DNA of 64,000 nucleotides, taken from the NCBI GenBank assembly GCA_043228905.1, contig JBHGNT010000018.1, positions 16,492,001-16,556,000 on the forward strand. The letters run 5' to 3'. The notes beneath the pieces were generated by a model. That model saw only the letters and a program-made list of their open reading frames with translations. It was not told the origin of the DNA and ran no database searches. The DNA comes from Azolla caroliniana. Lineage: Eukaryota; Plantae; Polypodiophyta. A program made the translations under genes and the position numbers. Below are positions 1 to 61,970 of the stretch, piece after piece (position 1 is the stretch's first letter; each line of letters opens with the position of its first letter).

Positions 1-1549
1 TTCATAACATGTATGACTATAGATTAGGTGGTTTACTGGCATGTTGCTTTTTAAATGATGTTCAGAAATGGTTAGAAAATTTGAGAGTAATTTACAGTTT
101 CATAACATTTTCTATCAGACCATAGATGGCATCTACCTGAAGACATGGCTGATCTCCTTCAATAGTTAATAGTACTGTGATGGATATGGTAGGTATGCCT
201 AACTGTGCTTAGGAGCAATAAAGGTTGCATGAATTTGTAAGGTATTCACGTGTTTCATGTCTTGAAATATGCCACAGGTTTTGCTTGTCAGATGATGATG
301 CAATGAAAAAAAAAGAAGATTTTGGGAGAAAATAGTAATGGATTGACTTTTTCCTGTAATACATTATCTTACTGGTGGGAAATCTCAGATGAGTTGGAAA
401 CACAAAATAGTTATTACAATGAAATGATCAGGTGTTCATTATATTTGTATTCAAATTAGGAACATTAAAAAAGTGGGCATTCATATGCTCCTCTACATCT
501 TTTGAGAAACTGGAAGAATGTAATTTCTGCCAATGAAAACCTGAATATCTGAGATATGTTGGAAGTAGGTTGACTGCAATTCAGTTGGGTGTGAGATAAT
601 CAGGAAAATGCCAATGCCAAGGATCTGGAGTATGTAACAAGATAGCCAGGATAAATTTCTCAAATATTGGGCAAGAAACTCTTATTGGAGCTAGTAAGTG
701 ATTTGTTATAACAAGGTGGCTGTTTGTGGACAAGTCCATATCAGATGAAGTACAATTCATAAACATGTCCACATCTCCTATGAGTGCCAATGGCAATCGG
801 ACAATATTATAGACACCTATAAAAGAAGACTTGTTCGTGTACTCTTTTGTATTGTTCATAGCCTTTGTTTACACCAAACCAAGTTTTTTGCAAGCTCCAA
901 ACAACATTGCAACATATGTCAATGCAGGGATCATGCTGTCATAACCATAAAGTTTTCTTGCTCAAAAAGTGAAAAAGAGTGCCAAAATTAGAGAAAAGAT
1001 GTCAATCCTCAAGTAATAGTGCCATAAGTGTTTAAGAGCCCTTTAATGGCGTGCCATATCAGCCTCTGATGCGTGCTAATCCTGACCACTTTTTTCTTCC
1101 AAATGAATTCATTAAAATGCAAGACGATCATGTGGCTATTACCTCTTGCATCTTTGTTACACATGGTGACATTACACTAGTTTTCTTGGTTCATAGATAT
1201 TTTCCTTCACAGTTTACTGCCTTTGAGAGACTGATTGTTTCAATTTGATATCTGAAGACTCTTTATTACTTTAGTGTCCTTGGGGCTGGAAGAGGTGGAA
1301 GAGCATGTGGATGATACCCAAGTTGCAGAAACACAAAAAGATGACAACTTATGATTAAAAGGAGAACATTGATATTCAGCTTTGTTGATCTATTTTTCTA
1401 AGTTTCTGGAAGTTAGCCTATAATCTAGAAATTTTTCTTATTATCATCTTGACTTGCCTATCTAGTTGTATTTGTTTGAATTAATTACACTTGTTTCATT
1501 TTTCTACTCAATACACATTTAGAACTCTTATATATTACCGATCACCCTC

Positions 1550-3029
1550 CTCAGAGACAATGTGCACATCTGCAGTTCCAAGAGCCACGGACTAAGCTAT
1601 GGTCATTTGATACACTTGTCACACCAACTCTTTTCTATGGAGTAGAAACACGGGGACCGAGTCTTAACAAGGCAAATCATTGGAAAGATTTAGAGAGACT
1701 TTTAGTGTCAATGATTGCTCGCATGATAAGGAGCAAAACATCGGTGCCCCACGATATAATCCGGGCAGAGATGGGAGCAGCACCTATAATAACCGAGGCA
1801 TTGTTCCGATTTGTGACATTTATCCAACGTCTTTGGGAGCTACCTAAACGAAGGTACCCAAGGTTGGCACTTATGTCATCAAGACAACTGCCTGAAAATG
1901 GAGACACTCATTGTTGGTATGCTGAAATGCAGCAATGGTCCGAGTCACATGGCATGAGTATAAATGCACTACCGCCGTTCCAATATAGCTTGGACTGTCC
2001 CCACCTAAATATGACCAAAGTGGAAAAGAATAGAGTGATCCGGACTGATATTATTAACTTGGAAAACAAGATAACATGGATCAGCCCCAAAATACCACTA
2101 GGTACAAAGATGGCCCACTATAAGACGCACTTCTTACATACATTGGTGGATGGATTTGTCATCATGCCACCTTATATGGACATACATCTATCCTATGCGC
2201 TGCGTAGTGTGATAGGGCAGCTAAGAACTTCATCACATCAGCTACAGATTGAGGTAGGCAGATATACACGACTACCTCTAGAAGAGAGAATTTGCCAATT
2301 GTGTCATCAAGAAGTGGAATCTGAGGAACACTATGTTTGTCATTGTAGTATCTTTTATGAAATCAGAGGGAGATACCATTGCCTCTTTAAACAAGGCTTC
2401 GGCCCACTACGCAAGGTAATGGAATATGAGGACCAACGATGCCTAGGACTTTTCTTGCTAGAGCTCAAGAGACATCGGGAAAAGTTGTTGAAGAATACAA
2501 CCACACAAGCTCATCCACAAAGAACAATCACAACTTTCTTTAGCCCCATCACTCCTACTAATCCTACAAGTCCATCACGGGGTACACAAATGGGTTCCAA
2601 ACCAGGACATAACAAAGGGGTTACAATTGATCGGGCAATAACAATTTGCCGTGCACGTAGGCCCCGCCCCCATGGACCACGACCTCGACACCCTTGTCAT
2701 CGATAGATAAAAACCATTATCTCCCGCCATCGTAGATGCTTCCCTCGCTTTGGAGACATTTCCATTCTGGATCGACCTATGCTAGAGATCTTTCGAAGAA
2801 AAAAGCTACAATATACCTAACTTGAGGATCTCACATGTGTCAAAAGCCCGATTCCCTCGTTTCTTCTCTTTTCATCTTATTTACTTTTATATTTTCTTTG
2901 TCGTATTTATTTTATTTTGATTTGTTCTCAAAGACGAGACAACACTCAAGATGTAATCTCTTATTTGGTCTTATAGGCCATTTTGGCCTCTTAAAAGACG
3001 TTAATATATCTTTCTTTCTTTCTTTCTTT
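1550..3029 (+). mobile_element. 5'-truncated non-LTR retrotransposon (RTE-X/CR1/L2-like), sense orientation within a TRN1 intron
   Basis: RT thumb motif KLWSFDTLVTPTLFYGVE is in frame with ORF 1705-2706. That ORF carries LRTSSHQLQIEVGRY...RICQLC...EEHYVCHC (C-terminal zinc-binding motif). The element ends in a (TTTC)n tail at ~3010-3029. No TSD seen. Confidence 0.8.
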
Positions 3030-8531: not shown

Positions 8532-8548
8532 AACTTTCCCGTTCAATG

Positions 8549-11500
8549 TTTTATTTTATTATTTATTTTCCAAAACAAACTCCTTCCATTAGTTATAAAA
8601 TTTTACAGATGAGAGTGTTATATACAAATCTTAGTAGGGACACGATAGTTCCATATTATGTGGATGCCCACTGACTCAAGAAAGGGGGAGGACGACCATT
8701 GTTGGATGAAGGCTAGTCATTGTCTTTCAACTCCATCGGAGCTGTCCTTGAGGCCATCGTATTGGCTCTTTAGAGTGGCTACAACTTCACTCCATATCTC
8801 TTGCATTAACATTATTAGATGCACGGTTTGGTTGGAGAAAACTCGTCTACACTGCTGTTTCTATAAAATCCAAAGAGTTATTGGGCTAACCAATTCTAAC
8901 ACAACTTGAGATTTGACATTAATAGGAGTTGAGTGGATACTATGGATGGTGGAAAAAAAAACTTCTTATGCTTATATCACCAAAGTCATCCCCTCCTAAT
9001 GTTCATACCTGTCAACTGGGGCCTGCCATGATAACCAACATACATTTCCCCACTTGATTGAGCCATGCACCTGGCATAATTGCAATAGGCGGCCAACCCC
9101 CCGTGATATTCGATGGGTTTTTGGGCAGTCCCACAGAGCGTGTTAGATTAATTCTGTTGCATTTGGGCAGGCTACACAGTTAGGAGAGCTAAGGTTCCCA
9201 CACTACCACACTCCAACTGGTAGTGACTTATGTATTAATAGCCATTGGAATGTGGTAATTTGCATAGCGTGTTGTTGTTTCCAGATTTGTTTCCAAAACT
9301 TGGTGATAATTGTATGAGGAACATGATATGTGTGCCAGACCTTTGTAGTGGCCGGCTCTCAGGCGGTTTGAGCGACTAGAATGCGGCGACCCAATCTAGT
9401 TGTGAATTGGAAGAAAGTGATGGCATTGCTTCCTTGACCCACATAAGGATTGCGCCACATCCATTGCAAAGGGTCCCAACTGACCTTACGTAGCCATGTG
9501 TTTTCATGAGCACATATGTGCCATTCTAATTGTACTTTAATCGGGTCGGGATCTACAATCCATTTATGACCAATATGTGCGAGTACTCAAATTGCCATAT
9601 TCAATGTTGGTATTTCTTTGTCTCGCGATTCATGTTCTTCAATCCTATCCAGTGTTTCCCTATCTCTTGAGAACAAAGAGCCCTCCTCCTCGTATCCTAT
9701 CCACTTCTCCATTGTTGTCCTTTGATTAGCAACTTCTCTAACCAATAGAGCGTTAATAATTTCAAATGTCACAGTCTATCTGCCCCTAATTCCATGAAGT
9801 ATGTTGGCTTGATCTTGTATTGGCAATGACATAAACCGTCTCCAACATTCTATACTCTTTCCTGGACCTTATGCAATGCATCCCCATAACAACCCCTAAC
9901 TTGATCCAATTAATTGACCATATTCATCTTTGATAGATGGGTTCCATAGGATGCGTTGACTGAGCCAGGTAGGTTTCAAATTAGGTTGATCACACTTGAG
10001 CCCTCGTCTTATGTCACAACATGCCTTCCACATGGATGTACTGAATCTATCATCCAATTGGCATGACAAACTTGGTTTGAGATCCATGTTTAGAATCCAT
10101 CCCATTTGGGGGGGCAATTGGCCCCTTTTCGTGGCCTAAAGTAAGCAAATTGTAACCGCAATAGCATTTTCTAGAAGTCATCCCCTGGTCGGTGTCCTCA
10201 CACCACAAATCTGGTGAATAGGGCTTTGGATTGTGAGAGGGGATCAATCAGACCCAACCCTCCTCTTGACTTAGGTGATGTGAGTATAGGCCACGCCACC
10301 TTGGCCCGAGCTGCATGATCTTCCTTACTAGACCAAATGTAGTTGCATACTAGTTGCTGAATTTGATGTATACTTTCCTTGGAGATTGTCCAACATGATA
10401 GGTTGTACCATGCTGTTGAGAATAATACCTTATTTGCCACTATGACGTGACTTGTTAACAAGAGTTTTTTCAAGCTCCAATGTATCAACTTTTGTTGAAT
10501 GGAGTGAATAACTGGCGCAATCATCGTCTCCAGTGGAATGTTGAATCCAATTTGGAAACCCAAATATTTGGTTCTCATTCCTTGATTGATCCACTTGAAA
10601 GTGGGATGTGGGTGTCATACAAGATGTGCTTCATGAGAAAGCCATATTGCATAGGACTTGTGCCAATTGATCATGGCGTTTGATCTCTTGCAAAACACGG
10701 TTAATCTACTTTCTAGCTTCTGTAGATTTTCCAAGTCCCCTTGCAAGTAGACAACGGTGTCATCTGCAAATTCTATATCCAGGGGGATTTGGTGAGAGTG
10801 CGGCACAGGAAGACCACGTAGGTTTAGATGTCGGGAGTTGAGAAAGCTAGAGAGTGCTTCGGAGTATAATAGAAATAAGGATGGAGCCAGTGGGCATCCC
10901 TATTGTACATATCGTGATATTCGGAAGAAGGGGCCCCTTTCACTTACTACTGAAACACAACAACTGTCATTCCTATATAGTCTTGCAATGCCTTTGATCC
11001 ATGACACTTGAAGCCGAGTTTCCCCATCACACTTCCAGTAGAAATTTCCAACATACCCTATCATATGCTTTCTCCAAATCTAGGAGCACCACAACTACCT
11101 TGTTGTTGGCACGCTCGGAAAGGGCTTCTGCTTCCTAGAATGAGAAAAGGTTGTCTAGGATGCTCCGATTTCTAACGAACCATGTCTTGGACGAATGAAT
11201 GAGTTGAGGGAAAAGTGGTGCTAAGTGGCATGCCACGATTTTTGCAGCAACTTATAGACAATATTGAGAAGAGTTATGGGCCGCCACTTACTAATGTCGT
11301 TGGCACTCCCACCAGTTTTAGGATTGAGATGTATCATCCCATGTCCAAATTCCTCCGGCATGTTTCCAACGGTGATGATCTCCTCATATGCATGTAGGGG
11401 TGAGGGATGCTCTCCTCATATGTCCAAACCCCCTGTCCAAATCGGACAGTGCCTCCCATATTTTGATGATTGATAGGGGACGTGTGAGCGATGTATTCAT

Positions 11501-13770
11501 TTCCTTTGTGACTTTCTAGGGTATGCTTTGGAGGATAATATCTTCTCTTGTGTCTTCCCCTGTGGCCATACTATCTTCGGTAAGTAGTCATTTATAGTAA
11601 GTTATGGCGATATTCCTCATTTCTTCGCCATCCTCAGTGATTGTTCCATCCTCTTAGTTGAGGCTACACATCACTGTTCTAACGTGCTTTGGTCCCTTGG
11701 ATCAGAAGAATTCCTTCTTGGTCTTGTCCCCTACTCGAATCCAGTGAGTCATGATTCCATGAAACTCCATGTCATAAATTGTCTTTTCTGTCGCGATGAG
11801 TTCTTGTTTGGCCATGGCAACATGTCCCGCTACCCAATTGCATGATGGGTATCTCTTTTGGAGTCGTTGTAAGGCTATTAGTTCCCGTTTGGTCCTTTGT
11901 CTCTTTTGTTGAACATCCTTACTTCTGGTCTTGATGAGCTCGTGTAGTATATTTGAAGATCTTCTTAGTTTAATTAGAAGTTTGTTGGATGCTAATGAGT
12001 CATTGACCGGCAATGACCATTGGGTGGTCAGTTGTGCCTTCACCTTTGTAACTGTGTACATAGTGTGCGGGATTCGAGGCTGAAACGAGCCCCACTTTTA
12101 GTGCAATTGAAAATGGCCGATTACCGGTTAGTTGTCGGAGAAAGTTCTGCTTGGAGTTATGCGACACCATCCTCCCTTCACTTCTAAGGCCTTGCCCACA
12201 TAGATGTAGTCGATGCGAGATAGGGTGGGTCCACTATTCCACCCATCTGATCGAGAAAATAAGAGAGAGTCCCTTTTGTGTTGGAAGTTGTTTGAATGGC
12301 ATATATCTTGTAGGTTAAGGTGTTCCCTTCTTTGGAGAACTATGGGATTGTTGTTAGAACTATCGTGAAGGGATTCAATCATATTCAAATCCCCTCCAAT
12401 GCACCATTCCTCCTCACCCACTACTTGTAGGTGGATACGCTCCCAAAATGTTGCCCTTTCTATTATGTTATTTGGAGCATAAACATTCATGAAATTCCAA
12501 GGTTGCCCTTGAATGGCCAACGTGCAAAAATGTGCCCTAACAGGTATAAGTGATTCTTGGTGTATTAAGCCTTGGGCTACTAGATGTTCCCGAATCCAAG
12601 TGCAAATACCACGATAATTTCCATAATCACCTATTGGTAGCTAACACATTGTTCGTCACAATCCTGGTAGAAGGTCTCCGACTTCCTTTAAATAGGTACT
12701 ATCGAGATGGTGTTCCTGCAACATGATGATGTTAACAACACCGCCTAATATGTACTCCTCAAGGTACCTTCTTAGTTTCCATCTATTTTGATGGTCTAAT
12801 CGACTCATGAGCACTTGCACGTTCCATGTTACAACATTCATGGTCATGTAATGGGGTGGGCGATTACCAGGTGTTCCTAATGCTTTGCATAACAAGCCGT
12901 GTGTGGGGAACACTCACCATTTAGACATCTAGTCATTTTCATTAATGGAATGATGGTCCAGATCCATGAGTGGAGTTTGTGGGCTATCCGGTGAGCTTCA
13001 ATAGCCCCTTCTTGCTTCTCATAGAAATAGTAAAAGCCTGGATTTAGCTGAGTGTCTATGATAGTTCACAGTTGAATGTGGTAGAGGTGAGGTTTCTCTT
13101 TATCCATGGTGCACCGGAATTCTCTGTTATTCCAATGCTTCTTTAGTTCGTTCATGAGTTCTTCATCTCTTATTCTTGTTACAAAACATGTTGCTTGGCT
13201 ACATAGCGTATCTTTAATTTTGGACTTGGACCAGGCTTCCTATGCTAGAAGCAACAATGGAAAAGAGATTGAGGTCATTCATGCTCCATTATTGTGTACC
13301 GCTGATACATGTACCCTTATTTTGTCCATTGTCTTGTACCCTATACCTAGCGATTTCAAGGTGTTTTGTGGATGGGGTTCAAGGCCTTGGCTACAGGTAT
13401 CACACTCATTGGTGTTTGGGAAGGCTATGATCTAAGGGGTGACATTCAAACTTGTGCCTTGGTTTGTTGTGTCTCCATTGGGTGCAGTTTCGCTAAAGCT
13501 CTGCATTAGAGACTTAACATGACTTATCCTTCGTCTCTTCCTTGTTTTGTAAGCTTTAATGAGAACTTTCTCTTGGGTGCTTGGAATCACCTTAGGCCTT
13601 TCCTTGGGGCTTAAGAAAGTACTAGGGGAGTGTTCATCACTGGTGATTGGTGATAGGTGATTGTTATTGGAAATTGTGATCCAATTTGAAAGAGGTTTCA
13701 AGTTGACGAGAATATTTTTGGGTTACTCATAGACAAGTGAGATCGAGAGGTTTGAAGGGCTAATGTCCCA
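8549..13770 (-). mobile_element. Decayed L1-clade LINE (L1b): partial ORF1, APE endonuclease, RT, zf-RVT
   Basis: EN motifs: VVTWNV, IMLQEHHL, NVYAPN, IGGDLN, SRIDYIY (12128-12913). RT motifs: FADDT (10615-10806), KYLGFQIG and KVAW...PKSRGGLGL (10198-10578). Degenerate A-rich tail at 8549-8570. Many stops and frameshifts; the 5' boundary is approximate. Confidence 0.9.
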
Positions 13771-43934: not shown

Positions 43935-45688
43935 TTTTTTCTTTTTTTTCTTTTTTTTCTTTTTTTCCAAAAAAGAATATACTCCTTTAGTTAAAATATA
44001 CAGAAACTCGATCCCTTTCTCGGGAAGGCGGAGCCAAGACTATCCTATCCTACACAAGAGATCTTGCTTATTTATCTTACACTTTCACATATGGCTCTAG
44101 CCATCCTTTCATGCACATCACCTACATTCATTATCCCACATGTCATGTCTTTCACGCCCCTCGTTCATCTAATGGGAGGGGGGAACAACCATTTGGGTAC
44201 TTCATACTTCCATAGTATATCCAGTCCATTTGTTGTGGCCATCGGTGTAGTACACCATCGCTTTCGAAAATTCAGCCTTATTAGTTCTGCAACATCATTA
44301 ATACCATCAATCCGCTCATATTTAGCTCTTAGTGTAGTTATTAATGTGTGCCAGATTAGCTTAGTCGATTCAGTTGGGGGGCGTTTGTGTGCTGAAAATA
44401 CCCTGGTACACCTTGATGTCCATATATACCATATAGTAATGGGGGCAAGCAACATCCAAAAATCTCCAGGTTTTTGATTCTGTGCACAAGTTGTAGGTAC
44501 CCTGTTGTCAGTGATCAGCCGCACAATGCCATTCTCCCCTCTGTACTTAGCATCGCATGTGCTATCGTATTTCGCCACATCATCCTCAAGACAAATCCAA
44601 CAAGCATGTCCCCAATTGAGGGTGAACGGACTAGAGGCATGGCAAAGCAAACGTAGTGCCCTTCCCCATACAGCCACTGCCTCGCAACATTCCCATAGAC
44701 AATGGGAAATGCTTTCTATCTGTCCACGGGCAATACATCTAGGGTCTACATTGGGGCCTTTACCCCACGTCCCTACCGGCAAGGCTCTATGTGCAATAAG
44801 CCATAAACACATCATTATCTTGTGGTCATATCTGTCATGCCATATCATTTACCAGAATTTATCTAGTCTCATTTCACTAATGCCCTCCTGTATCCAAAAT
44901 TTCCTTGATGCAATCTTGTCGTGTTCTTGTTGTAGAATAATTTGCCTCCCAATCTTTGTGTTATACCTGAAAATTTGAACCAGCTTTTCCCCATCAGTTC
45001 GTCCTTGAGTTTTCCAACAATACATCGATGGGTCCCATGATCCAAATGCCCTTGTATAGGCCAACACACTATCGTAGGTGTGATCTCCATTGGCTTAGGG
45101 TCAATAATCATATTCTTGCCATTTTTGGCAATCACAATCTTGCCCGCAAAGGATAGTTTTCTCACATTCCACCATATTAACTTTGCTTTTATTTTGTCCA
45201 CTAGTAGATTGTAATGTTCTGCTCGATCAATGTCCATACCAATTTTGAAGCCCAAGTATCTACTAGCTTCTCCTTTCCTCAACCATCTAAAATTGGGGTC
45301 GGGGACCCAATTTAACATGAGCTTATTACTGATCCAAATGCCAACAAATTTATTCCAATTTATTTTAGCATTGTTGAGAATCAAGCTCAACTTGGTCTAG
45401 TGTGTGAACTCACCTTGAGAGTGAATAGACACTCCAACGGTCAAGAGTCACCATTAAGTCACCTCTTTGTATTCTAGCATTTAGTATGAGTCATAGAATC
45501 ATATTCTATGACACATAACTTATGAGCTTTCACATTCCCCATGCTCCATGAGGCTTGTAGTTAATGAAGAGAGAGGGTGACTATATAAACCACCCTCCTC
45601 CCACCTTGTATTCTGTTGAGTCTTTCTCCTTTGTTAATATAATCTACCTTGCGTATACTCTGTCTTACTCCTTGTCTCTCTCACTCAC

Positions 45689-45729
<41 letters not shown>

Positions 45730-48480
45730 CACACACGGTTCATTGTACCCGGACAGATAATGCATCGGCCTTTTCTATCCATGAGTCGAGGGTCCAAATA
45801 CCATCTGTCCAACCTGGACATCGTCCACCCATGCACACTTCCTCCTACTCTAGAGTATCGAATAGATTTTTCTTTTTGCATTTGAAAGTTAGGTGCATTC
45901 CAACAGTCTATCACATTATATGCTAAACAAAACTTATCCCATGCATACTTCTCTGCCCCCTGTACCGTGCCATTTGCATTGCCTCTTCTATCTTCTGGAT
46001 GCTCCACCATATTAAAGTCTCCTCCAATGATCCACAACTCAGCATCTGGTTTCTTGGCCACTAATTGCAAGTAGAATTCTTGTCTTTCAGCAGCTGAATT
46101 TGGGGCATATATGTTCAGTATGCCCAAGTGCCCACAACTATGTTTTATCCTTATGTAGATAGCACGCCCCTTTATTAAACTCCCCTTGCCTGTACAATCG
46201 ACAGTAAACTTAGCTTTCATAGCAATAAGTACTCCCCCCTGAATCGGCCTATCCTCAGTAGTTGTTGACCATGTATTGGTCCAGTTCCCAAGGCAAATGC
46301 TTCCAATTTTATCAATCTTATCCTCATCTAGATGGTGCTCCTGCACCAAGATAATATCAAGCACCATTGCCTCAATGCAACACTGGATTTCAGCAACCAA
46401 TACATTCTTTTTCATCTGGAATTGGGTGCCATCAATTCCTTGTATATTCCAAGTTAGCAAGCTAAGATTCAGATAATCTACACCTTCTGAGGCTTGGCCA
46501 ATGCATTTTCCGCTTCCAATATGGTAGCTAATATCCTATCTTGGAGATTTTCCTTTTCCAACTATGTCAACATTTCAGGGATGTATACCATGAATTCCAT
46601 GAACAATTTAGGAAGCTTCCTAAATTTCACATTTATGTGGCATATGCCTTGTTCATTCGCCTTGCCCGAACTCCAAATCAAGGCATCTTTCCATTGTCTT
46701 TTCATTTTCATCCCTATTGCGGTACCATATGATGAGTCTACATGAACATCCATTTGTTGTTCCAAACATCCAAGGGCTTCTTCTCTACTATGTGGTTCCT
46801 TATTTCCCAAGGCCAAAACATAGAACAGACCAACGATCCGTCCTTCATCAATACATTTACCATATATATTGACTCTACATATGTTGTCCTTCTTCATCTC
46901 ACTTCCACATATTTCCTTGAACCACTTTTTGCCTGTTAGTTTCAATTTGATCTATTGTCCAGTATTCGAGAGGGGGGTCACCTTGTATTGAAGATTCCAG
47001 TCCACTCTTGGCCATCTACGCATCCCTTTATTTTTTTCCATCCCCTGCACCTCCTCTTTTCTAGCACGCATGTGCCTTTTCATTTTTGCTATCCCCTTCA
47101 TATAATGGGTTGTCACCAATGCCTTAGCTTTCTCTTTCAAGGGGCTTACGACCTTTTCTACATTTAATTTTCCTACCTCATCCATACTTTCATGAAGCAT
47201 CTGGCCAAAATCATCCCCTACCAAGTTGTCTTCCTAGTGTAGTTTCTCCATATTAGTGCTTCCACATTATTGCTCTCATGAGTTGCCTTCGATTTTGCTT
47301 CCCTTTCATTAGGTTTGTTTTCATTGTCCTCTGAGGTTAAGAGCGCGTATTTGTTTCTAAGTGGGAGCCATTCTTGTCCGACCATGACTTTTTTTTTGCC
47401 TTTATAGGTGTTATATTTCCATCCATCTTCATTCTTACTCATTGCATGGTTTATTTGTTGATTATTCTGTTGCATCAGGCTTGTTTGACTTTTCTGTCCT
47501 TGCTTCCCATTTCCATGATGCATGTGCTCCTTTCCTCTAGGGCATTCTCGGGCCATATGCCCCATCTGTCTACATGCAAAGCATTGCCCTAGGGGTCCCG
47601 CATACTCTACAGTTTGTACATGGTCAACCATTTGTTTACTGCTCAACAACATTGATTGCGGTAAGGTCTTTACACCCAAAACAATTAGTTTGATCCTCGG
47701 TGTTTCACTTATTCTCTCTACAAGAGTTTTTCCAAGCATTGCCCTCCCATACTTTTGCCAATGGTTGGGAGAAAGGATCCCCATTGCTTAGGTAAACCAG
47801 GGAAAAAGGTCGTTAACATTGTAGGATTGCCTATACAAGCATCAGCTTTACACATGTCAAAGTTTGCAGCCCAATTGAATGCATAGGCTCTCGCATTGTG
47901 CCAAATCAGTGGGCTGCTCTCGACAATTTTGCATATATTCGTTTCCGGCATCACTGTAGCATGGTAGAACCCCTTTCCCATAAATGCAATGTCCTTCAAT
48001 TTGCCAAGGTCTTCTAGTAGCAAGCTTTGCAGCCAATCACGCAACATTGCTCTATTGGGTCAACTACCCACCACTTTTACCACAACGGATTCACGTTTAA
48101 GACGTGTTAATTCACTCTCCATAAGGCATTCTTCTTCCAGGGAGAGAACAAAGGCTCCCATTGCATGCATCGAGGGACCATTTCGATAGTCCACCCCTTG
48201 TATTTCCTGTTTTGTTTCAGCATCAATGCGATTATATAGATGTTCATGACATAACTGTGTCCCATTGAAGTCCAGACGGTTTGGGGATGATGTTCGTGCA
48301 TGCTCTGAAGCAGCCGAATCTTTGTTCAAAGATCCCTCTACTGCCATCGCTCCTCACAATCGGGTCGTTGTTCGATGACTCTGTTGTCGTCGTTTGATGA
48401 GCCCACTACTGTCAGCGTCGTTGTTCCTCTGTTCTCCCGTCAACACCTCCTATTCAGCCTCCCGTCGGCGCCTATCTCTA
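43935..48480 (-). mobile_element. L1-clade LINE (L1c): ORF1 and ORF2, RT core deleted at an LTR insertion
   Basis: ORF1 ~46480-48347 with zinc knuckle CFACRQMGHMAREC. EN 45723-46460 (LTWNIQG, LVQEHHL, NIYAPN, GGDFN, SRLDRWY). RT tail RYLGFKIG; zf-RVT LWLIAHRALPVG..ESISHCLWEC. A-rich tail at 43935-43966. Confidence 0.92.
45372..45742 (+). mobile_element. 3'-truncated LTR of the Copia A family inside L1c
   Basis: Starts TGTTGAGAATCAAGCTCAACTTGG and is colinear with LTR 20618-20999 for ~370 bp. Confidence 0.92.
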
Positions 48481-51940: not shown

Positions 51941-54900
51941 TCATGTTGTTTGTTGTGAACGGTTACTTGCGGAAGCGTTAGAAAACAGAGAAAGTAGGGA
52001 ATACAAGGAGTACACAGGAGAGACAGAGAGAGCAGAACGTAAGAGCTATATTCAAAACGATATAATCACTCTGTTACATACAATTGTGCTCAGTAGCACT
52101 ATTTATACAAGTTCTCATGGGACTGACAGAAGTACTGCGTACTTCAATGCTCACACGAGCTTCTGACACTTACTACGAGACTATAATTGCCTAGTAGTCT
52201 AAACTAATATTCGGCTTCCGGTTACCGATTGGATCCGGCTAACCGACTCCCCAACTCACCGGCTTTGTTGCTTGCCGGTTCGGTTGCTTGCGGCTTACCG
52301 ATCCGTCTTGCTTGCCGGCTCAGGCTTATTGAGCCGATCCGGCTCTAGTTGAGCTTGCCGCTCAACACTCCCCCTCAAGCTCAACTTGAGGTTGGATCCT
52401 AGTGTCAGTCTCTGTGGCAGTCGGTTCTTCCAACCGACTTCTCCTGGCGTCACTCCGCCTTGCTCGCGCTACTCGTCCGGTTAGGTTCTGTTTGCCGCGA
52501 CCCCTCTTGTTCTGCGCGCCTCGACCTTCTCGGTCGGTATGTCTGCTCAATAGGCCCCTCTCAGCTCCTCGCTGCTATGACTCCGACGCTTATCGATCCG
52601 TCGGTTCCTCCGCGATGGCATTGACTTCCGCTGCATCTGTGTCTGCTTGGCCTTGAATTGATCCGGTTCTTCCAAATCTATCTTTTGAGCCGAATCGACT
52701 GTCTCCGATTCGTTCCAGCTCTTGTTTGAATCGGTTGCTCCCGATTCGTCTTCTGGTTCCAAGCCCTTCACCACATCGGACCATGTCCGAGTCTTGTCCT
52801 TCTTCCTTCGGTCATCTCTGTCCTTCTTGACTCTGCCGCCTTCTGTTCTTCCCTCACCGACGCAATCGGCAGTCTCTTTGCCTTTGCCCATTCCGGTGTC
52901 TTTGCTCGTCCTCCCCCTCAAGTGTGGCACGTCGAGTTGCTGAACACCAAGAATTTCGGTGAAGTGTTGCAACTTGTCTAATCCGAGCGGCTTGGTGAAG
53001 ATGTCGGCAACTTGTCGATCCGTGTGAACATACCGAAGTTCGACCTCACCGCTCAGGACACGCTCACGCACGAAGTGATAGTGCACTTCTATGTGCTTTG
53101 TGCGAGCATGGAATATGGTGTTCTTGGCGAGTTGCATGCTGCTTATGTTGTCGCAGTAGACCAGAATCGGGGTCAGTACCTCGATCTGTAGGTCTTGCAG
53201 CAGTCACTGAAGCCAAATGGCTTCACAGGTGGCAATGGTAGCGCCCCAATACTCAGCCTCAATGCTCGACAGAGTAACTGTTGGCTGCTTTTTGCTGCTC
53301 CACACAACAACCGCGCTACCTACGGAAAACATATAACCGGAGGTTGATCGACGATCTGATGCATCGCCGGCCCAGTCGGCATCCGTGTAACCGACGAGCT
53401 CTTCGGTTATACCTCATCGATATAACAGTCCCCGGTCCTTCGTGCCGCTTACATATCGCAATATCCGTTGCGAGCACTGAAGGTGCTCCACGGTCAGCTT
53501 CTGCATGAATTGACTTATCATTCTGACCGGATAGCTGATGTCGGGTCGAGTGATGGTCAGGTAAATAAGGCTTCCAACAATCTGTCGGAACCGTTGCTCG
53601 TTGCAGGCCGGTCCGGAGTTGGGACGAAGCTTCTGGTTCCGGTCCAAGGGTGTGGAGACAGGTCGGCATTCTGTCATGCCGAACTTGTACAGCATATTCA
53701 AGACGTAATGTCATTGTGAGAGCAATATGCCGTCCGGGGTTCGGATCACATCGATCCCTAGAAAATAATGAAGGTCCCCTAGATCCTTCATCTCAAATGC
53801 GTCCAACAACTGGGATTTGACGTGGTTGATTTCTGGAACTCCTGGTCCGGTGATGACTAGATCATCAACATACAGCAGTATACATACCGGACTGGCTGAG
53901 CCTTGCCGGATGAACAATGAAGAGTCCAATTTGGAGGCCACAAACCCCATCTTACGAAACCGGTGCGTGATCTTCGCATTCCAAGCTCGAGGGGCTTGCT
54001 TTAGGCCGTACAACGACTTCTTCAGCCGGCATACCGCCGACTTGTTCATCTCTGATTCAAAGCCGGGGAGTTGAGTCATAAAGACTTCTTCTTCAAGATC
54101 ACCCTGAACAAAATGCATTCTTCGCATCCATCTAGTGAAGATGCCACCCTCTTGCTGCAGCAACCACCAGCACCACACGAACCGTCGTCATCTTCGCTAC
54201 CGGAGCGAAGGTCTCGTCGTAGTCGATTCCGTGGGTCTACGCGTATCCCTTCGCCACTATCTGGGCTTTATACCGGTTAACAGAACCGTCGGCGTTGTAC
54301 TTTACCTTGTATATCCACTTGCATCCGATCGGTTTACAGTGACAAGGAGGGTCAACCAGGTCCCATGTCTTGTTGACATCAAGTGCCCGCATTTCTTCTT
54401 CCATAGCGGCACGCCAATTTGCGTCCTTGGCCGCTTCTGCATAGCTCTCCGGCTCACGCACTTCCGCCACCTTAGTCATGTACGCATAGTGATGCGCCAT
54501 GTACTCATTCTACCCGTACCGCTGTCATGAAGATTTTCGGCAATAGTGTGAAAATCCCATAAAACGTACGAAATCGAGTATGAATCACGTAGTACAATAA
54601 TTGTGAAGATAACATTTTAAATAGATTTAATATCTAATTACAAAATGATGGAGGTTTCGAATGCACTTTATTACACGAGAAACGGACAACTAAATGTCAA
54701 GATATGAGGGTATAACGTTTGTAAAAGGAAAGGAGAAAATTGTGAGATATCCCACATAGGCACGACAAATACAACTCTCATCATATATAAGGTGGAGCAA
54801 AAGATATTATCTTTGTGTCTATGTGTGGAGCATAGAGAGTTCAAGGTAACTTGAACTAAGAGTGGAGGTGGGCTAGCTACTCGTAAAGAGTTTTGGCCAA

Positions 54901-55101
54901 CCAAAACCGGACCGGCGATGGAGCCGGCGACGGTGATCCGGTGGCAATCCAGCGATGGCATCCGGCGAGGCACCGGTAACCGACGGCATCCGGCGACGGC
55001 AACGGTAACCGACGACATCCGGCGACGGTATTCGGCGAACCGGCGTCCGGCGACTAGATAAATAAATATATAAATATATATACATATTTACATATACAAG
55101 G

Positions 55102-55173
55102 AGGGCAAGTAAGGATTCGAACCTTGCACCTCCAAGTTAGGAGTCAATTGGCTTACCATTAAGCCATGCTATT
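55102..55173 (-). promoter_or_regulatory. tRNA-derived Pol III internal promoter (A box + B box) in the 5' LTR
   Basis: The minus strand reads TGGCTTAATGG (A box)...CTCCTAA...AGGTG CAAGG TTCGAAT CCTTA (B box GGTTCGAATCC) with canonical tRNA spacing. The acceptor and anticodon stems do not pair. Confidence 0.7.
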
Positions 55174-55576
55174 TAGTTGAAATTATATTTCTATCATTGT
55201 AGTTTTACATGTAAATTCTCATACATGAGAACTAAAATGAGTGACATGGTTATCATGCACCACATGTAATACATAAGCGCCAAATGGCAAACATGCAATT
55301 TATGCATGTCTTGTACCCTCACATGCATCATATGCATGAGAACATCTATAAAATAGGGAAGGGGGAGGAGAAAAAACACGAGTTTTTTTTATGAAAATTA
55401 AGAGGAAGAAATTCGTTATCAAATCAATCGTGTAATCTCAACTTCTCTCTTTCCCAATCTATCTTAAGTACTTTCTCGCCAAAGCTTGTATCGACTCTAA
55501 ATCCTTCTGGTCCAGAACCCCGGCGGTTCCGCCTCACGATCCACGCGTAGTGACGGATCTTCACGACATAATTAAG

Positions 55577-55594
55577 TGGTGAACCCGACGTGAA
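55577..55594 (+). promoter_or_regulatory. Primer binding site complementary to tRNA-Trp
   Basis: TGGTGAACCCGACGTGAA is the reverse complement of the 3' 18 nt of plant cytosolic tRNA-Trp (…UUCACGUCGGGUUCACCA, recalled). It lies 8 nt after the LTR end. Confidence 0.85.
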
Positions 55595-55629
55595 AGAGGC
55601 AGTAGGAAGGATCAAATCAAGATTAATAC

Positions 55630-57834
55630 TTGGAGATGGCGTCCTCAAGCAACCAAGCAGGAGAGCTCGAAAGGATGATGCTAATCATTGAGCAAATGAT
55701 GAGATCTCAGGACAACAGCGCGAGCGTGGAGAAGGCTGTCGATCGTGTCATAGAGCTCGAGGGCCAATTCGATGGAAGGAACGTTACGAAGTTCCTTGAT
55801 GCATATAGAAGGGAGATGAATCAAAGGGACGTGTCTGAGGCACGTCAAATCGCAAGCTTCAAGAGAGTTGTCGCCAACAACATCCAAAGACGCGTCATCG
55901 AGCTTCAAGAAGGTAAGACAACATGGTCCGAGTTCGAGAAAATGATACTAGCGGAGTTCGTGACTAAAGACTCAACGAGGATGACACGACATGCCTTGAT
56001 GAAGTGGATAGAGAAGAAGAATAAGAAGATGAGCGTCTCGAGGGTGTACGACGAATTCGACCAGATGTTTAGTCGTCTCCCCAATACGGACCAAGTGTTG
56101 CTTGAAGAGGACAAGACTTTGTACTTCTTGAAGGTCGTGGACATAAAGGATAGACGGGAGTTGGGGACTCTTCTCGAAGATGATACCCAAGCAAATGGGC
56201 TCGTAGCGGACTGGATTGCGGTGAAGCGGGCATGCAATAGGCTCGACAAGCGTCGCGAATGGGTTGATTACACCGACTTGATGGGACCGACTACCACGGA
56301 GAAAGCAAGACCGCCGAAAGTAGCTGAGCCGCCAAGACAAAGTAACGTGGAAGAAAAGAAGATTGATGACGACATCATTGAAGAGCTAGCGAAGAAGTTC
56401 GAGAAGGTCACGCTAGCCAACATGAATCGTCGGGGCCCTAAAGGAAAAGAACCCTTTAGATGCGTGTGGTGCGATAGTATGGACCACATGAGAAGGGATT
56501 GTGCGAGCCTTCGAGAGGCAATTCGACAAAATATCGTATACATAGAGGACAACATGATCTGCTCAAGCGAGACTAGAAGACCCCTACGGGTGAATTTCGG
56601 AAGAGGAGGAATGAAGAGATCTATGGAGGATGCCGATGCGACTCATGTGGATGCAATGCACTATGTTGCGTCGGCCGGAATAAGAGTCAGGAAAGACAAG
56701 ACTGAAGCTGCTAGAGCGGGAGCAAAGTTTTGGACTTCCGTTCTCGAATATGAGAAGAAGGGAAAAATCACATCGAACGAGGTAGAGCTTGCGGACCGAA
56801 GCGTGCAAAGCATAACCGGGTGGTCGGATCCGGTGGACGACAACACCATACTCGCAGAGGTGATGTGCGACAACCACGAAGTGTTCGTCGAAGAAAAGAG
56901 AAAGAGAATAGAAGAGCAAGGGCCATCAAAAAGACATGAAACAAGGAACGCGAAAAAGAAGGACGATGCGGAGACAAGTCGACCTTTACAAACGGAGGAA
57001 CGAGAATCAAGCCGAAAAGGGGAGCCGAGCATACGAATTGAAGAAACGGTTCGGCCCGTGAAGGTTGGTGTCGAAGACCCCGCTCGGAGGACAAGGACTA
57101 TACCTACCTATAAGCTAAGGTCGGACATAGAGCAGACGACGGACCTAAAGAAGATTCTCGAAGAACGAGTTCTTGATAGCCACGTAACTTTGTCCTTGAG
57201 GGAATTGCTAGGCATTACGAAGAAGGAGTTCCATGACACGATCGTGGACCTTGTAAAGAGAAAGAGACAACAATCGGACGAGGAAGAAGAGAAGCCGCAA
57301 AAAGCAAAAACGAATGCCATAACGATGGCAAGAGACGAAATCGATGAAGATATGGTGGACAGCCACTACACTCGACCTCATTGGGCACGAGCGACAACGG
57401 AGACGCCGGTGAAGATCGGGGAGAAGAAAGAGACCGTGGTAGCCTTGATCGACCACGGCTCGGAGATCAACCTCATGTCAACCGACTTCTACAAAAAAGG
57501 AAGATGGCCAATCAATACAAACCACGGATGGAAGATTCGCGCGGCAACAAAGTCTACGGAAGATTTGTACGGAGCTTGTCCCAATGTCAAAGTCACGATC
57601 GGGGATGTGGAGATGGATCAACACTTCTTCGTACAAGAATCGGCGTCACATCCTGTCACCCTAGGGCAACCTTATATCACATCATCTCGGATGGAGACCA
57701 AAGTGTTCGATAATGGAGCAGCCTTCGCACGAATAAAGAGTCTTGACAACCAAAGATCGGTCCAATTCCTAACGGTCCGAGCCAATCATGAAAGGAATCG
57801 AGATAGTCTCGGAGGCGAATCCTCGGATTTTTAG
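55630..57834 (+). CDS. Gypsy Gag-protease polyprotein (intact ORF)
   Basis: 734-aa ORF with gag FDGRNVTKFL, zinc knuckle CVWCDSMDHMRRDC and aspartic protease ALIDHGSEINLM. Confidence 0.9.
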   Translation: MEMASSSNQAGELERMMLIIEQMMRSQDNSASVEKAVDRVIELEGQFDGRNVTKFLDAYRREMNQRDVSEARQIASFKRVVANNIQRRVIELQEGKTTWSEFEKMILAEFVTKDSTRMTRHALMKWIEKKNKKMSVSRVYDEFDQMFSRLPNTDQVLLEEDKTLYFLKVVDIKDRRELGTLLEDDTQANGLVADWIAVKRACNRLDKRREWVDYTDLMGPTTTEKARPPKVAEPPRQSNVEEKKIDDDIIEELAKKFEKVTLANMNRRGPKGKEPFRCVWCDSMDHMRRDCASLREAIRQNIVYIEDNMICSSETRRPLRVNFGRGGMKRSMEDADATHVDAMHYVASAGIRVRKDKTEAARAGAKFWTSVLEYEKKGKITSNEVELADRSVQSITGWSDPVDDNTILAEVMCDNHEVFVEEKRKRIEEQGPSKRHETRNAKKKDDAETSRPLQTEERESSRKGEPSIRIEETVRPVKVGVEDPARRTRTIPTYKLRSDIEQTTDLKKILEERVLDSHVTLSLRELLGITKKEFHDTIVDLVKRKRQQSDEEEEKPQKAKTNAITMARDEIDEDMVDSHYTRPHWARATTETPVKIGEKKETVVALIDHGSEINLMSTDFYKKGRWPINTNHGWKIRAATKSTEDLYGACPNVKVTIGDVEMDQHFFVQESASHPVTLGQPYITSSRMETKVFDNGAAFARIKSLDNQRSVQFLTVRANHERNRDSLGGESSDF

Positions 57835-57887
57835 AGCGGACTATTGAAGCATGGGGCACAAATAGTCTGAGCAATCACAAGACCCCA
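57825..57887 (+). promoter_or_regulatory. Putative -1 programmed ribosomal frameshift signal
   Basis: G GAT TTT (57825-57831) lies directly before the gag-PR TAG. Stem 1 is CGGACTATT/AATAGTCTG and stem 2 is TGGGG/CCCCA. The -1 frame is open into pol. Confidence 0.75.
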
Positions 57888-60800
57888 CAAGAAAGAAGAG
57901 TGCGTGGATTGCAAGGAGAAGCAACATGTGTCACACCTAGTGGCGCATGTAAACTAGTACTACCCGACAAGAAGCACAAGCGCCGGATACAAGAATTCGA
58001 GAAGATGCTGAAAGAAGAGAACATAATAGAAGAAGGAGAGTTCGTGACTCATATTATGGAAGAAGCCTCATTTAACGACACCATCGGCGAAATCGAGGAC
58101 GTCGTGGACTTGAGCTATCTTCACAACCAACGCGTGATTTCGGTTAACTCCGTCAACATGTACGCTATCATCGATGAATACCGTCGTGGCATCTCGATGA
58201 AGGAAGCTGACATCAACACGAAATATAAAACGGTGGATAAGAAGATCACGCCAGTTGCGGTTCCGCTACCGGAAGATAGCTAGCAAAAGATGAAGGAAGT
58301 CGCTAACGATCCAAGCTTAAGAGATCCGAAGAAGATAGGTCATGTCTTCACCAAAGAGACGAAGGGGAAGCTACGAGTTGGAAAGGAGAATTTCCTTCTC
58401 CCTGAAGAGGACCGAATGTTTCGCGATATGCTTGAGAGACATGGGAAGGCTTTCGCATTCTTCCCATGAGAAATCGGATGCGCCGACCCAAAGGTTATAG
58501 AGCCGATGGTGATCTTCACGGTGCCTCATGTGCCTTGGAACTTGAAACCGATACCGGTTCCGAGAGCACACCTTCCGAAGCTGATCGAGCTCTTAAAGGA
58601 GAAGGTGAGTATGGGAATTCTAGAACCGTCAAATGCTCCTTATTCCAATAGGTGGTTCACGGTGCCGAAGAAGAATGGATCATTGCGATTCATCCAAGAT
58701 CTTCAACCCGTCAACAAGGTGACAATTCGAAATGCCGGAATCGGTCCGAGCGTGGACGAATTTGCCGAAGCGTTTGCGGGCCGGTCCATCTACTCCATTG
58801 GCGATCTCTACTCCGGATATGACCAATTCCAATTGGCGATCGACAGTCGGGATATTACAACCATGAGGACTCCGATCGGGCTTGTGCGGATGTGTACCTT
58901 ACCCCAAGGCCCAACGAACTCGGTGGCTCATATGGTGAATGCCATGAATAAAGTCTTGAAGGATTGCATTCCGGACATCACGATGCCATTCTTGGATGAT
59001 ATTCCGATGAAAGGATGTTCGGATGAGGAGAAAGATGAATCGAAAGATAAGGAAGGTTGTAGAAAGTTCGTTGCGGATCATATGAAAGATTGCGAGAAGG
59101 TGCTTCAAAGGCTCGAAGATGCGAATTTAACATTTTCGGGAGAAAAATCCGCATTCGGGCAACCGGAGATCTTGGTGGTAGGTCACTTGTGTGGAGCATA
59201 CGGCCGGAAGCCCTCGCCATCCAAAGTGAACGCAATCCAAGACATGAAAGAAGAATGCGAAAACCAAACGGAGGTTCGAAGGTTCCTTGGAGCGTGCGCG
59301 TTTTATCATATATGGATTCCTCACTACGCTCATGTCGCTGAACCGTTATATGGACTACTAAAGAAAAGAATAAAGTTCGAATGGAGAGACGAGCACACAG
59401 AGGCGATGCGAAGATTAAAGAAACTGCTTCTTGAAGCTCCGGCACTAAGGAAGGCCGACTATGCCGAAGGGAAACCAATTTATGTGACCATAGATACGAG
59501 CCCAACCGGAATCGGGTGGGTCATCAATTAAGAAGGTGAAGATAATGTGCAATATGCCATCCGGTTCGGAGCAAAGGTTCTCAGCGAACGGCAACAAAGA
59601 TATGCCCAAGTCAAGCGGGAACTTTGGGGTATTGTGTCGGCAGTGAAGACGGACAAAGATTACCTGATCGGGTCAGAAGTGATAATAGAGACAGATTGTC
59701 TCCCAATTCTCGGAATGGTCTCGGGATGTGCGACCCCAGATCTTGCTATGCTAAGGTGGATCGCCTACATCAAGTCTTTAAACCCAGAGATCCGTCACAT
59801 CGTAGGGAAGAAGAACGCCATGGCTGACATGCTATCGAGGGCAAGATTTTCAAATGGAAGTAACATGGTTTCGGAAGATGAAGATGTCGCCCTCGACTTC
59901 TTCAAGATGGCTTGATTGTCGGCGGAAGACCAGGACACGCAAACCCTCCACGCCTTCAACGAGAACGAGTACGAAGGAGAATGGTTACTCATCGGTAGAT
60001 TCCTAAGAACATTGACGACAGATGCTTCGTTGACAAAGGAGGAGGCCCTACGAATCCGAAAGAAAGCTTACCGATACTTCTTGAAGGGAGGATTCCTTTG
60101 GCGACATCCAAAAAGAAGGACAGGAATACCACGTCGAGTGGTGGTAAAGAAAGAAGAGCAAGAGACGCTGATGACCGAATTCCACGAGAGTGCTTGGGCA
60201 GGTCATAGAGGAACATGGGCGACGTTCGAAAAATTGAAGGAGAAGTACTGGTGGCCAAGCATGTTTAAAGATGTACTCCATTTCGTGTCCACATGTGAAA
60301 CTTGCCAAATATATTCAAATATACGTCATTGTGATGAGTTAAGGCCGACATACCCACTCACCATTCACTTCAAATGGATGGTGGATCTGGTCTCGATGCC
60401 AATGGGAGTGGGACAAATGAAGTACTTAGCGCTGGCAAGGGAAGACTTGACAAATCAAGTGGAAGGACGAGCCTTGACAAATAAGACGACTTCAGCCGTT
60501 TGTAAATTTTTACTTGAAGATGTTGTTTGCCGATATGGATGTGTAGGGAAGATAGTGGCCGACCGAGGGGAGTTGGACGCGCACGAAGCGACGGAGCTCT
60601 TCGAAAGACTAGGCGTGAAGCTCTCCCTCACGACTGCCTACAATCCGGAAGCAAATGGGAAGATCGAGCGAGGGCATGGACCTATCGTTAAAGCCATCGT
60701 ACGGGCATGCAACGGTCGAGTCGGGAATTGGCCACGACTATTACCCTATGCCTTGTGGGCCGATAGAACGACACATAGCTCAGTGACAGGGTATATGCCG

Positions 60801-61319
60801 ACGGAGCTTATGTATGCACAAAAGCCGATTATGCCCATCGAAAGGACGATCGCCTCATGGGTAGCGATACCGTGGGAGAACGAGATGGGCCGAGAAGAGT
60901 TATTAGCGGCGCGGATAAGGCAACTTGAAAGAAGACCTGAAGATTTAGAAAAAGCGCGAAAGATGATGAAGGCAGCCTGAGTAAAGAACAAAGTTCGGTT
61001 CGACAACACGCATCGACTTCGTCCCAAGAAGATTGAAGAAGGGGATTGGGTTTTGGTTTACAATAGCACCCTTGACAATCAACACAGTACAACAAGGAAG
61101 TTCGCAAGAAGATGGTTCGGGCCGTATGTGGTGACAAGTGCCAACGATAATGCCACATACCACCTTGCGGAACTAGACGGATCAAGGTTGGCCGTACCCA
61201 TTGCGGGAAAAAGAGTAAAGATTTTCAAGAAAAGACAAGACAAGGATCCTGACCTCGATTACCTCGACGATGAACATAATAGGCCAGATGAAAATGAAGA
61301 CATGGAGGAATCTAATTGA
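57828..61319 (+). pseudogene. Gypsy pol (RT-RNaseH-integrase) in the -1 frame, five in-frame stops
   Basis: ORFs 57900, 58506, 59547, 59916 and 61053 share one frame. RT DLYSGYDQ..PFLDDIP, RH IDTSPTGIG..ETDC, IN H..GH..C..C, VDL, ADRGE, NGKIERGH, GPY. Confidence 0.9.
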
Positions 61320-61970
61320 TCATCGTAGCCGAAATCTCACTTCTTCTCTTCTTGGCACGTACCGGAGGACGTGTGGTTTGGTGGGGGTGGATGTCGTGAA
61401 GATTTTCGGCAATAGTGTGAAAATCCCATAAAACGTACAAAATTGAGTATGAATCACGTAGTACAATAATTGTGAAGATAACATTTTAAATAGATTTAAT
61501 ATCTAAGTACAAAATGATGGAGGTTTCGAATGCACTTTATTACACGAGAAACGGACAACTAAATGTCAAGATATGAGGGTATAAAGTTTGTAAAAGGAAA
61601 GGAGAAAATTGTGAGATATCCCACATAGGCACGACAAATACAACTCTCATCATATATAAGGTGGAGCAAAAGATATTATCTTTGTGTCTATGTGTGGAGC
61701 ATAGAGAGTTCAAGGTAACTTGAACTAAGAGTGGAGGTGGGCTAGCTACTCGTAAAGGGTTTTGGCCAACCAAAACCGGACCGGCGATGGAGCCGGCGAC
61801 GGTGATCCGGTGGCAATCCAGCGACGGCATCCGGCGAGGCACCGGTAACCGACGGCATCCGGCGACGGCAATGGTAACCGACGACATCCGGCGACGGTAT
61901 TCGGCGAACCGGCGTCCGGCGACTAGATAAATAAATATATAAATATATATACATATTTACATATACAAGG

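Follow-up and report, generated by a model that had tools for sequence, protein, structure and literature searches.

Two decayed copies of L1 retrotransposons, L1b and L1c, lie within a 64,000-nucleotide stretch of Azolla caroliniana DNA (assembly GCA_043228905.1, contig JBHGNT010000018.1, positions 16,492,001 to 16,556,000; hereafter the window), and both encode a conserved domain of about 145 residues at the end of their first open reading frame (ORF1). This is a real, selected and uncatalogued domain on a plant type I ORF1 protein (ORF1p), which is predicted to be folded and whose function is inferred. A sequence-only reading of the window had pointed to an 83-amino acid (aa) domain shared by the two copies, proposing either a folded lineage-specific accessory domain or a third ORF.

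Homology and selection of the ORF1 C-terminal domain

The features of the two window copies are listed below.

8546..13638, minus strand: L1b, decayed 5'-truncated L1 copy of family b (81% DNA identity over 5.2 kb to L062)
12850..13644, minus strand: L1b ORF1 remnant, with the linker end, the C-terminal domain and a short tail, containing in-frame stops (tblastn and translation)
12952..13377, minus strand: ~145-aa ORF1 C-terminal domain of L1b, stop-broken (domain hidden Markov model (HMM), 133 bits, profile positions 2-143)
8624..12913, minus strand: L1b ORF2 (endonuclease, reverse transcriptase (RT) and zf-RVT), frameshifted (tblastn with the intact 1456-aa L209 ORF2; Pfam Exo_endo_phos)
43952..48441, minus strand: L1c, decayed L1 copy of family c with two large ORF2 deletions (90% DNA identity, in three blocks, to the intact L066)
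46472..48353, minus strand: L1c ORF1 (RNA recognition motif (RRM)/DUF4283-like region, knuckle, linker and C-terminal domain), with two frameshifts and stops (tblastn)
47539..47586, minus strand: CCHC zinc knuckle of L1c ORF1 (Pfam zf-CCHC, E 3.4e-6)
46535..46939, minus strand: ~145-aa ORF1 C-terminal domain of L1c, with a premature stop at 46559-46561 (domain HMM; translation)
45741..46574, minus strand: L1c ORF2 endonuclease (Pfam Exo_endo_phos, E 4e-10; tblastn)

Both are dead copies, with stops inside the domain in each. The L1b ORF1 remnant was 69% identical to residues 310-574 of the intact L063 ORF1 (tblastn); truncation occurred at approximately 13638, inside the ORF1 linker, and the knuckle therefore falls outside this copy. 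The L1c ORF1 was 74-82% identical to the intact 628-aa ORF1 of L066, spread over three frames (tblastn). In both copies the ORF2 frame overlaps the end of ORF1 (window 12850-12913 in L1b and 46472-46574 in L1c).

The two peptides first quoted (13069-13317 and 46628-46876) match our translations exactly, and the 13 identities listed between them are present without gaps. Both stretches are contained within the domains above, the length of which proved to be about 145 rather than 83 aa. Aligned without gaps in that register, which was picked post hoc, the pair scored 21, above all 20000 of 20000 shuffles; the best free local alignment scored 22, a value attained by 2493 of 5000 shuffles, and wider three-frame segments scored at best 35, under the shuffle mean of 41. 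As free alignments were no better than shuffles, the pairwise significance of the two peptides was rejected as proof of homology, which was instead confirmed by profiles built from genomic copies of each family.

Copies were searched for in the source genome (523 Mb), for which all copy counts are lower bounds. The L1c peptide retrieved at least 93 matches among 104 candidates, and the L1b peptide at least 150 (150 scored). Further L1s were sampled at 60 loci (40 of 149 DUF4283 matches and 20 of 150 endonuclease matches), nine of which carried the domain; this sampling uncovered families d1 and e, queries from which returned at least 97 and 118 matches, respectively, and brought up the additional family d2. 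The domain was found in five lineages of the genome (b, c, d1, d2 and e), with families c and e being young and abundant. A degraded L1 lineage (L169/L170) with a weak domain match (8-13 bits) directly ahead of its endonuclease was kept out of this count.

A profile of family b scored six c copies at 9-15 bits (reached by 0-1 of 2000 shuffles), and a profile of family c scored seven b copies at 11-16 bits (none of 2000). When HMMs were built with one family left out, the held-out sequences scored 26-36 bits (b), 13-20 bits (d), 9-14 bits (e) and 5-17 bits (c), reached by 0-11 of 2000 shuffles. Family c was not recognised by a profile from d and e alone; with outside relatives added, five c copies and the window copy scored 14-25 bits (none of 5000 shuffles). 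The L1b domain scored 23 bits (E 1.7e-8, six frames of the window) with a profile lacking family b, and the L1c domain 22.5 bits with a profile of 44 non-c sequences, reached by none of 5000 shuffles. Alignments of profiles with hhalign gave E-values of 1.5e-10 (b against d-like), 2.9e-7 (e against d-like), 0.003 (c against d-like) and 0.14 (c against e), and that of b against c recovered the register first noticed, at an E-value of only 0.006-0.011. By these profile comparisons, lineages b, c, d1, d2 and e share one homologous, ORF1-fused domain, which has diverged furthest in family c.

The ratio of nonsynonymous to synonymous substitution rates (dN/dS) of the domain between subfamilies was 0.15 (confidence interval 0.06-0.27) in d1, 0.22 (0.13-0.37) in e and 0.31 (0.18-0.50) in c, and ranged from 0.16 to 0.38 in five pairs of family b. 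Across the d1, e and c pairs and a closer e pair, the corresponding ratios were 0.41-0.65 (linker) and 0.07-0.16 (RRM region). Intervals were wide for two close pairs, and substitutions had reached saturation between d1 and d2; these ratios indicate that the domain is under purifying selection.

ORF1 architecture and distribution among L1 lineages

ORF1 consists of an RRM/DUF4283-like region, a CCHC knuckle, a variable linker of 160-200 aa and the domain, followed by a stop codon at or overlapping the start of ORF2. The domain ends intact ORF1s in all five families, with lengths of 628 aa in c (L066), 605-607 aa in d1, 608-622 aa in d2 and 777-812 aa in e, and frames of 575-605 aa in b (L062/L063). 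Of 30 loci each from families c and b, six and five, respectively, have a frame that stays open from the knuckle through the domain, and it is likewise open throughout these 575-812-aa ORF1s, which refutes the suggestion of a third ORF. Pfam zf-CCHC was matched in the ORF1 of b, c, d1 and e, and d2 has the CCHC pattern. Upstream of the knuckle, DUF4283 was matched at E-values of 1.6e-4 (d1), 3.9e-3 (b) and 3.1e-5 (P0080), all of them under the curated cut-off; it was undetected by Pfam in c and e, but the corresponding region of b matches that of c at E 5e-17. The fully open family c element L066 encodes frames of 628 and 1483 aa, the latter matching Pfam Exo_endo_phos, RVT_1 and zf-RVT, that is, an L1-type apurinic/apyrimidinic endonuclease (APE), RT and C-terminal zinc-binding region. 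A-rich 3' ends were seen in most of 24 inspected copies, and target-site duplications of 15-25 bp at L207, L210, L290, L298 and L301.

Several other characteristics of these elements were observed. In b, c and e (L063, L066 and L207) the ORF2 frame opens ahead of the end of ORF1, with the likely ORF2 ATG at or beside the ORF1 stop, and in d1 and d2 the ORF2 ATG immediately follows that stop; this junction layout suggests that ORF2 may be translated by termination-reinitiation. The ORF2 of the clade is approximately 1450 aa (L066, L205-L207, L209 and L299), and its RT and zf-RVT are separated by a long conserved stretch with no Pfam match, common to lineages with and without the domain. At the 5' end, full-length d1 copies (L206, L287 and L290) have an (AG)n run and then a short leader, while other d1 and most d2 copies begin no more than about 20 bases from the ORF1 ATG. 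A separate, very homogeneous and abundant family of long interspersed elements (LINEs; L113, L119 and L125) has 1126-aa ORF2 frames and a knuckle-free ORF1 frame of 309 aa.

Several L1 families of the genome have an ORF1 without the domain. One such family, young and intact, includes L210 and L299-L302; L299 and L301 have intact frames for its ORF1 (508 aa) and ORF2 (1450 aa), and the domain was missing from this 508-aa ORF1, as tested on L210. In a tree of ORF2 this domain-less branch (L210/L213/L214) is sister to d1 and d2 (ultrafast bootstrap 97) within the domain-bearing group, and a clade of domain-bearing lineages only was rejected by the approximately unbiased test (p = 0.0024), conducted on 11 of 17 rows after exclusion of window copies, short rows and near-duplicates. 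Given this nesting, loss of the domain in the L210/L213/L214 branch is the simplest reading, qualified by the long-branch outgroups and a tree of the RRM region that is not resolved. As regards the original proposal, a folded accessory domain is borne out by the in-frame fusion, the purifying selection, a confident AlphaFold core and absence from an intact sister lineage, whilst the term lineage-specific was too narrow for a domain that spans five or more lineages of this genome and also occurs in L1s of other origin (40-60% GC).

Predicted fold and candidate functions

AlphaFold predicted a confident core, and two models from families only about 18% identical share the element order of a helix, a beta-hairpin, a long helix, a short helix, two to three strands and a helix, with a beta-grasp-like core. 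In a VIA fold search with the better model, the 50 rows comprised 36 of Nudix fold, 11 of ubiquitin-like beta-grasp and three unassigned (assignment by title or recall), and the nearest rows in all three VIA runs belonged to the Nudix/beta-grasp superfamily. Neither the Transposase_22 C-terminal domain (CTD) nor POZ domains were among the fold-search rows, from which no exclusion follows. The domain is without a close solved structure, and may therefore represent a new beta-grasp variant.

Two other folds were considered and rejected. A GH116 catalytic region (DUF608) was suggested by the ESM Atlas for family c only (feature score 0.92, 157 of 256 shared), and was ruled out as there was no usable d1 match and no Pfam match, and both models are alpha/beta; the GH116 catalytic region is an all-helical barrel. 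For an RNase H/PIWI fold, likeness to Argonaute-2 reached only E 0.47, and both models have only two strands ahead of the long helix, where that fold has three consecutive strands followed by alternating helices and strands, together with acidic catalytic residues.

The explanation that we tentatively favour, at a little short of an even chance, is that this conserved C-terminal domain, of predicted beta-grasp-like (ubiquitin/Nudix-type) fold and without the Nudix catalytic motif, is an optional protein-binding adaptor of the L1 ribonucleoprotein. RNA binding by the core of type I ORF1p is established; the RRM and knuckle would hold the L1 RNA, and the domain would be tethered to them by the flexible linker. 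Judged solely by strand alternation, four conserved polar residues (R23, H25, S41 and H104) are predicted to occupy the open sheet face, which would probably bind a partner protein, from the host or a second ORF1p, and so aid particle assembly, trafficking or shielding. The exposed sheet face is described as the usual interaction surface of beta-grasp domains in the available text of PMC1949818. The domain would have been present in the ancestor of the clade, diverging fast in b, c and e and being lost in the L210/L213/L214 branch. RNA data were uninformative either way: in three poly(A) RNA runs with a related label, the 30-72 reads obtained were scattered and formed no continuous cover, and no RNA records were listed for one d1 stretch.

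The dominance of Nudix-fold chains in both VIA lists, where they cover most of the domain (model residues ~17-140) and the ubiquitin-like rows end near residue 112, speaks for another explanation, namely a captured degenerate Nudix domain that has kept its ligand pocket and binds L1 RNA, a cap or a nucleotide. The top BFVD row is also a Nudix protein (E 0.04), and in hhalign the strand FSFPLCG falls on WxFPGG of the Nudix fold; MUTYH, NrtR and CFIm25 contain non-catalytic Nudix domains that bind ligands in such roles. Against 35 bacterial Nudix proteins, hhalign gave the expected register and a score of 13.2, which was reached by 5 of 100 shuffles. The RExxEE/Nudix box was found in none of 49 sequences with a strict or a loose pattern, and in place of the PxG motif of Nudix strand 2, 12 of 16 lineage representatives have P43, after which d-like lineages continue with LCG (PxxG), and there is no Pro in c and e. 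The missing box, together with S41 as the sole invariant residue of the 16 representatives, speaks for a non-catalytic adaptor. The isoelectric point of the domain is 4.8-8.8, mostly 5-7, so that it is not a basic RNA-binding surface. We regard the ligand-binding Nudix explanation as unlikely. A bolder form of it, that an ancestral L1 of the clade captured a Nudix fold and converted it to a catalytically inactive ORF1p decoy that binds caps or nucleotides and shields L1 RNA from host decapping and decay, is decidedly improbable; if true, such a decoy would be a new type of ORF1p and a retrotransposon counter-defence made from a host RNA-decay fold.

Residue conservation bears on two further explanations. 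R23 and D98 are the only charged positions kept in at least 11 of the 16 lineage representatives. PB1 domains carry a conserved acidic cluster, and none of PB1 type was conserved among the 16, which argues against a self-association module (a PB1/DIX-like beta-grasp) substituting for the coiled coil of vertebrate and fish ORF1p in multimerising on RNA. The domain is also missing from one intact lineage and from typical plant ORF1ps, and this role appears rather unlikely. A new His-based metal-binding enzyme, such as a nuclease or phosphoesterase, active in d-like lineages and degenerate in families b, c and e, would account for the retention in d-like lineages of H25, D98, H104, a YIHE motif, a further Glu and an HxHW motif, and an enzyme within ORF1p has a precedent in the SGNH esterase (available text of PMC3905857). 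However, none of H25, D98, H104 and these motifs holds an invariant residue, and c and e replace H25 and H104 yet are young, abundant and under purifying selection; such an enzyme is, in our estimation, quite improbable.

Guidance of integration, by binding of the domain to a DNA target or chromatin mark, would parallel the PHD (plant homeodomain) domains of other ORF1ps, suggested as histone readers in the available text of PMC4120745. No common target was found in 19 d1, d2 and e copies, the flanks of which were varied and mostly AT-rich, as in five domain-less copies, and there is very little to recommend this role. Relative to these alternatives, the protein-binding adaptor remains our preferred explanation. 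One genome offers natural controls for it, in the form of young intact families with the domain (d1, d2, e and c) and a young intact sister family without, which make deletion, swap and pull-down tests direct.

Relatives beyond the genome and comparison with known ORF1p types

A profile of 25 sequences retrieved 55 proteins at E <= 1e-3 among 1.84 billion representatives, many being fragments close to the genome's own families and approximately 15 divergent; the best matches of two divergent proteins in the source genome were only 28% and 30%. None of ten checked proteins carries a name. Longer or full-length cluster members carry DUF4283 and/or the knuckle, and on three metagenome contigs (60%, 42% and 40% GC) the endonuclease starts right behind the ORF of the domain. 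All outside relatives with readable context were L1 ORF1s, and no donor gene was found among them.

A short tail after the domain, RS-DGDYSPSKP followed by Lys/Arg, was observed in L282, L283, L284 and P0040, and is nearly identical among outside L1s whose domains are only ~35-60% alike; we take it to resemble a proline-directed phosphosite ahead of a nuclear localisation signal. In d1, d2 and P0080 the domain is followed by a weaker tail of the form Pro..Lys..Arg/Lys, which b, c and e do not have.

Catalogue searches returned no Pfam domain match better than E 0.11, only single-member matches in NCBIfam, and nothing below E 0.2 in sequence searches of the PDB. One unnamed PHROGs family of 70 positions matched 5 of 49 members (best E 2.8e-4), and was matched again in only one b copy (E 0.028). 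A screen of 7119 candidates (771-2200 aa) gave no fused form, a negative of little weight, and viral contigs gave no match to one d2 query. No description of the domain was found in the literature searched, the coverage of which did not extend to Repbase, the supplementary domain table of PMC5203782 and some key ORF1 papers.

Elsewhere in the window, an ORF at 1480-2706 (plus strand) resembles the end of another LINE's ORF2 (weak zf-RVT), and 54671-61956 holds a near-intact gypsy-type long terminal repeat element, in which two similar terminal repeats flank long frames for gag/protease, RT, RNase H and integrase, amid several decayed copia-type elements.

To our knowledge, the accessory ORF1p domains described so far (esterase and PHD) are from animal elements. 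The elements examined here are L1s with a type I ORF1p; they share with the plant L1s of this type, as characterized in the available text of PMC5203782 and PMC4120745, a DUF4283-like region and knuckle, an ORF2 with APE, RT and zf-RVT, an A-rich tail and target-site duplications, but possess an extra conserved, folded domain of ~145 aa after a long linker, where none is listed for type I in that text. In common with the type II ORF1p of human L1, in which the CTD (Transposase_22) helps RNA binding (PMC4120745, available text), there is a folded C-terminal domain after the RRM; here, however, a knuckle and a linker of 160-200 aa separate the RRM region from a non-basic domain that has no Pfam match to Transposase_22 at E <= 10. 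The SGNH esterase of type IV ORF1p (ZfL2-1; PMC3905857, available text) is likewise an accessory folded domain of some lineages only, but the present domain has a different predicted fold, is added to the RRM and knuckle, and lacks GDS in all 49 sequences. Nor does it contain the Cys4-His-Cys3 finger of type III (PHD), with no Cys kept in at least 11 of 16 representatives; this accords with the lack of SGNH and PHD motifs noted initially, and Pfam gave no match. With the Nudix/beta-grasp superfamily (NadM Nudix 2qjo, DR0079 1q27, the MUTYH C-terminal domain and PB1; PMC1949818, available text), the models share a predicted hairpin, helix and strands, and a Pro-containing strand ahead of the long helix. 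Roles of ORF1p beyond RNA chaperoning are considered open in the available text of PMC12503042, and the domain described here would extend the known type I architecture by a folded C-terminal module of predicted beta-grasp-like form.
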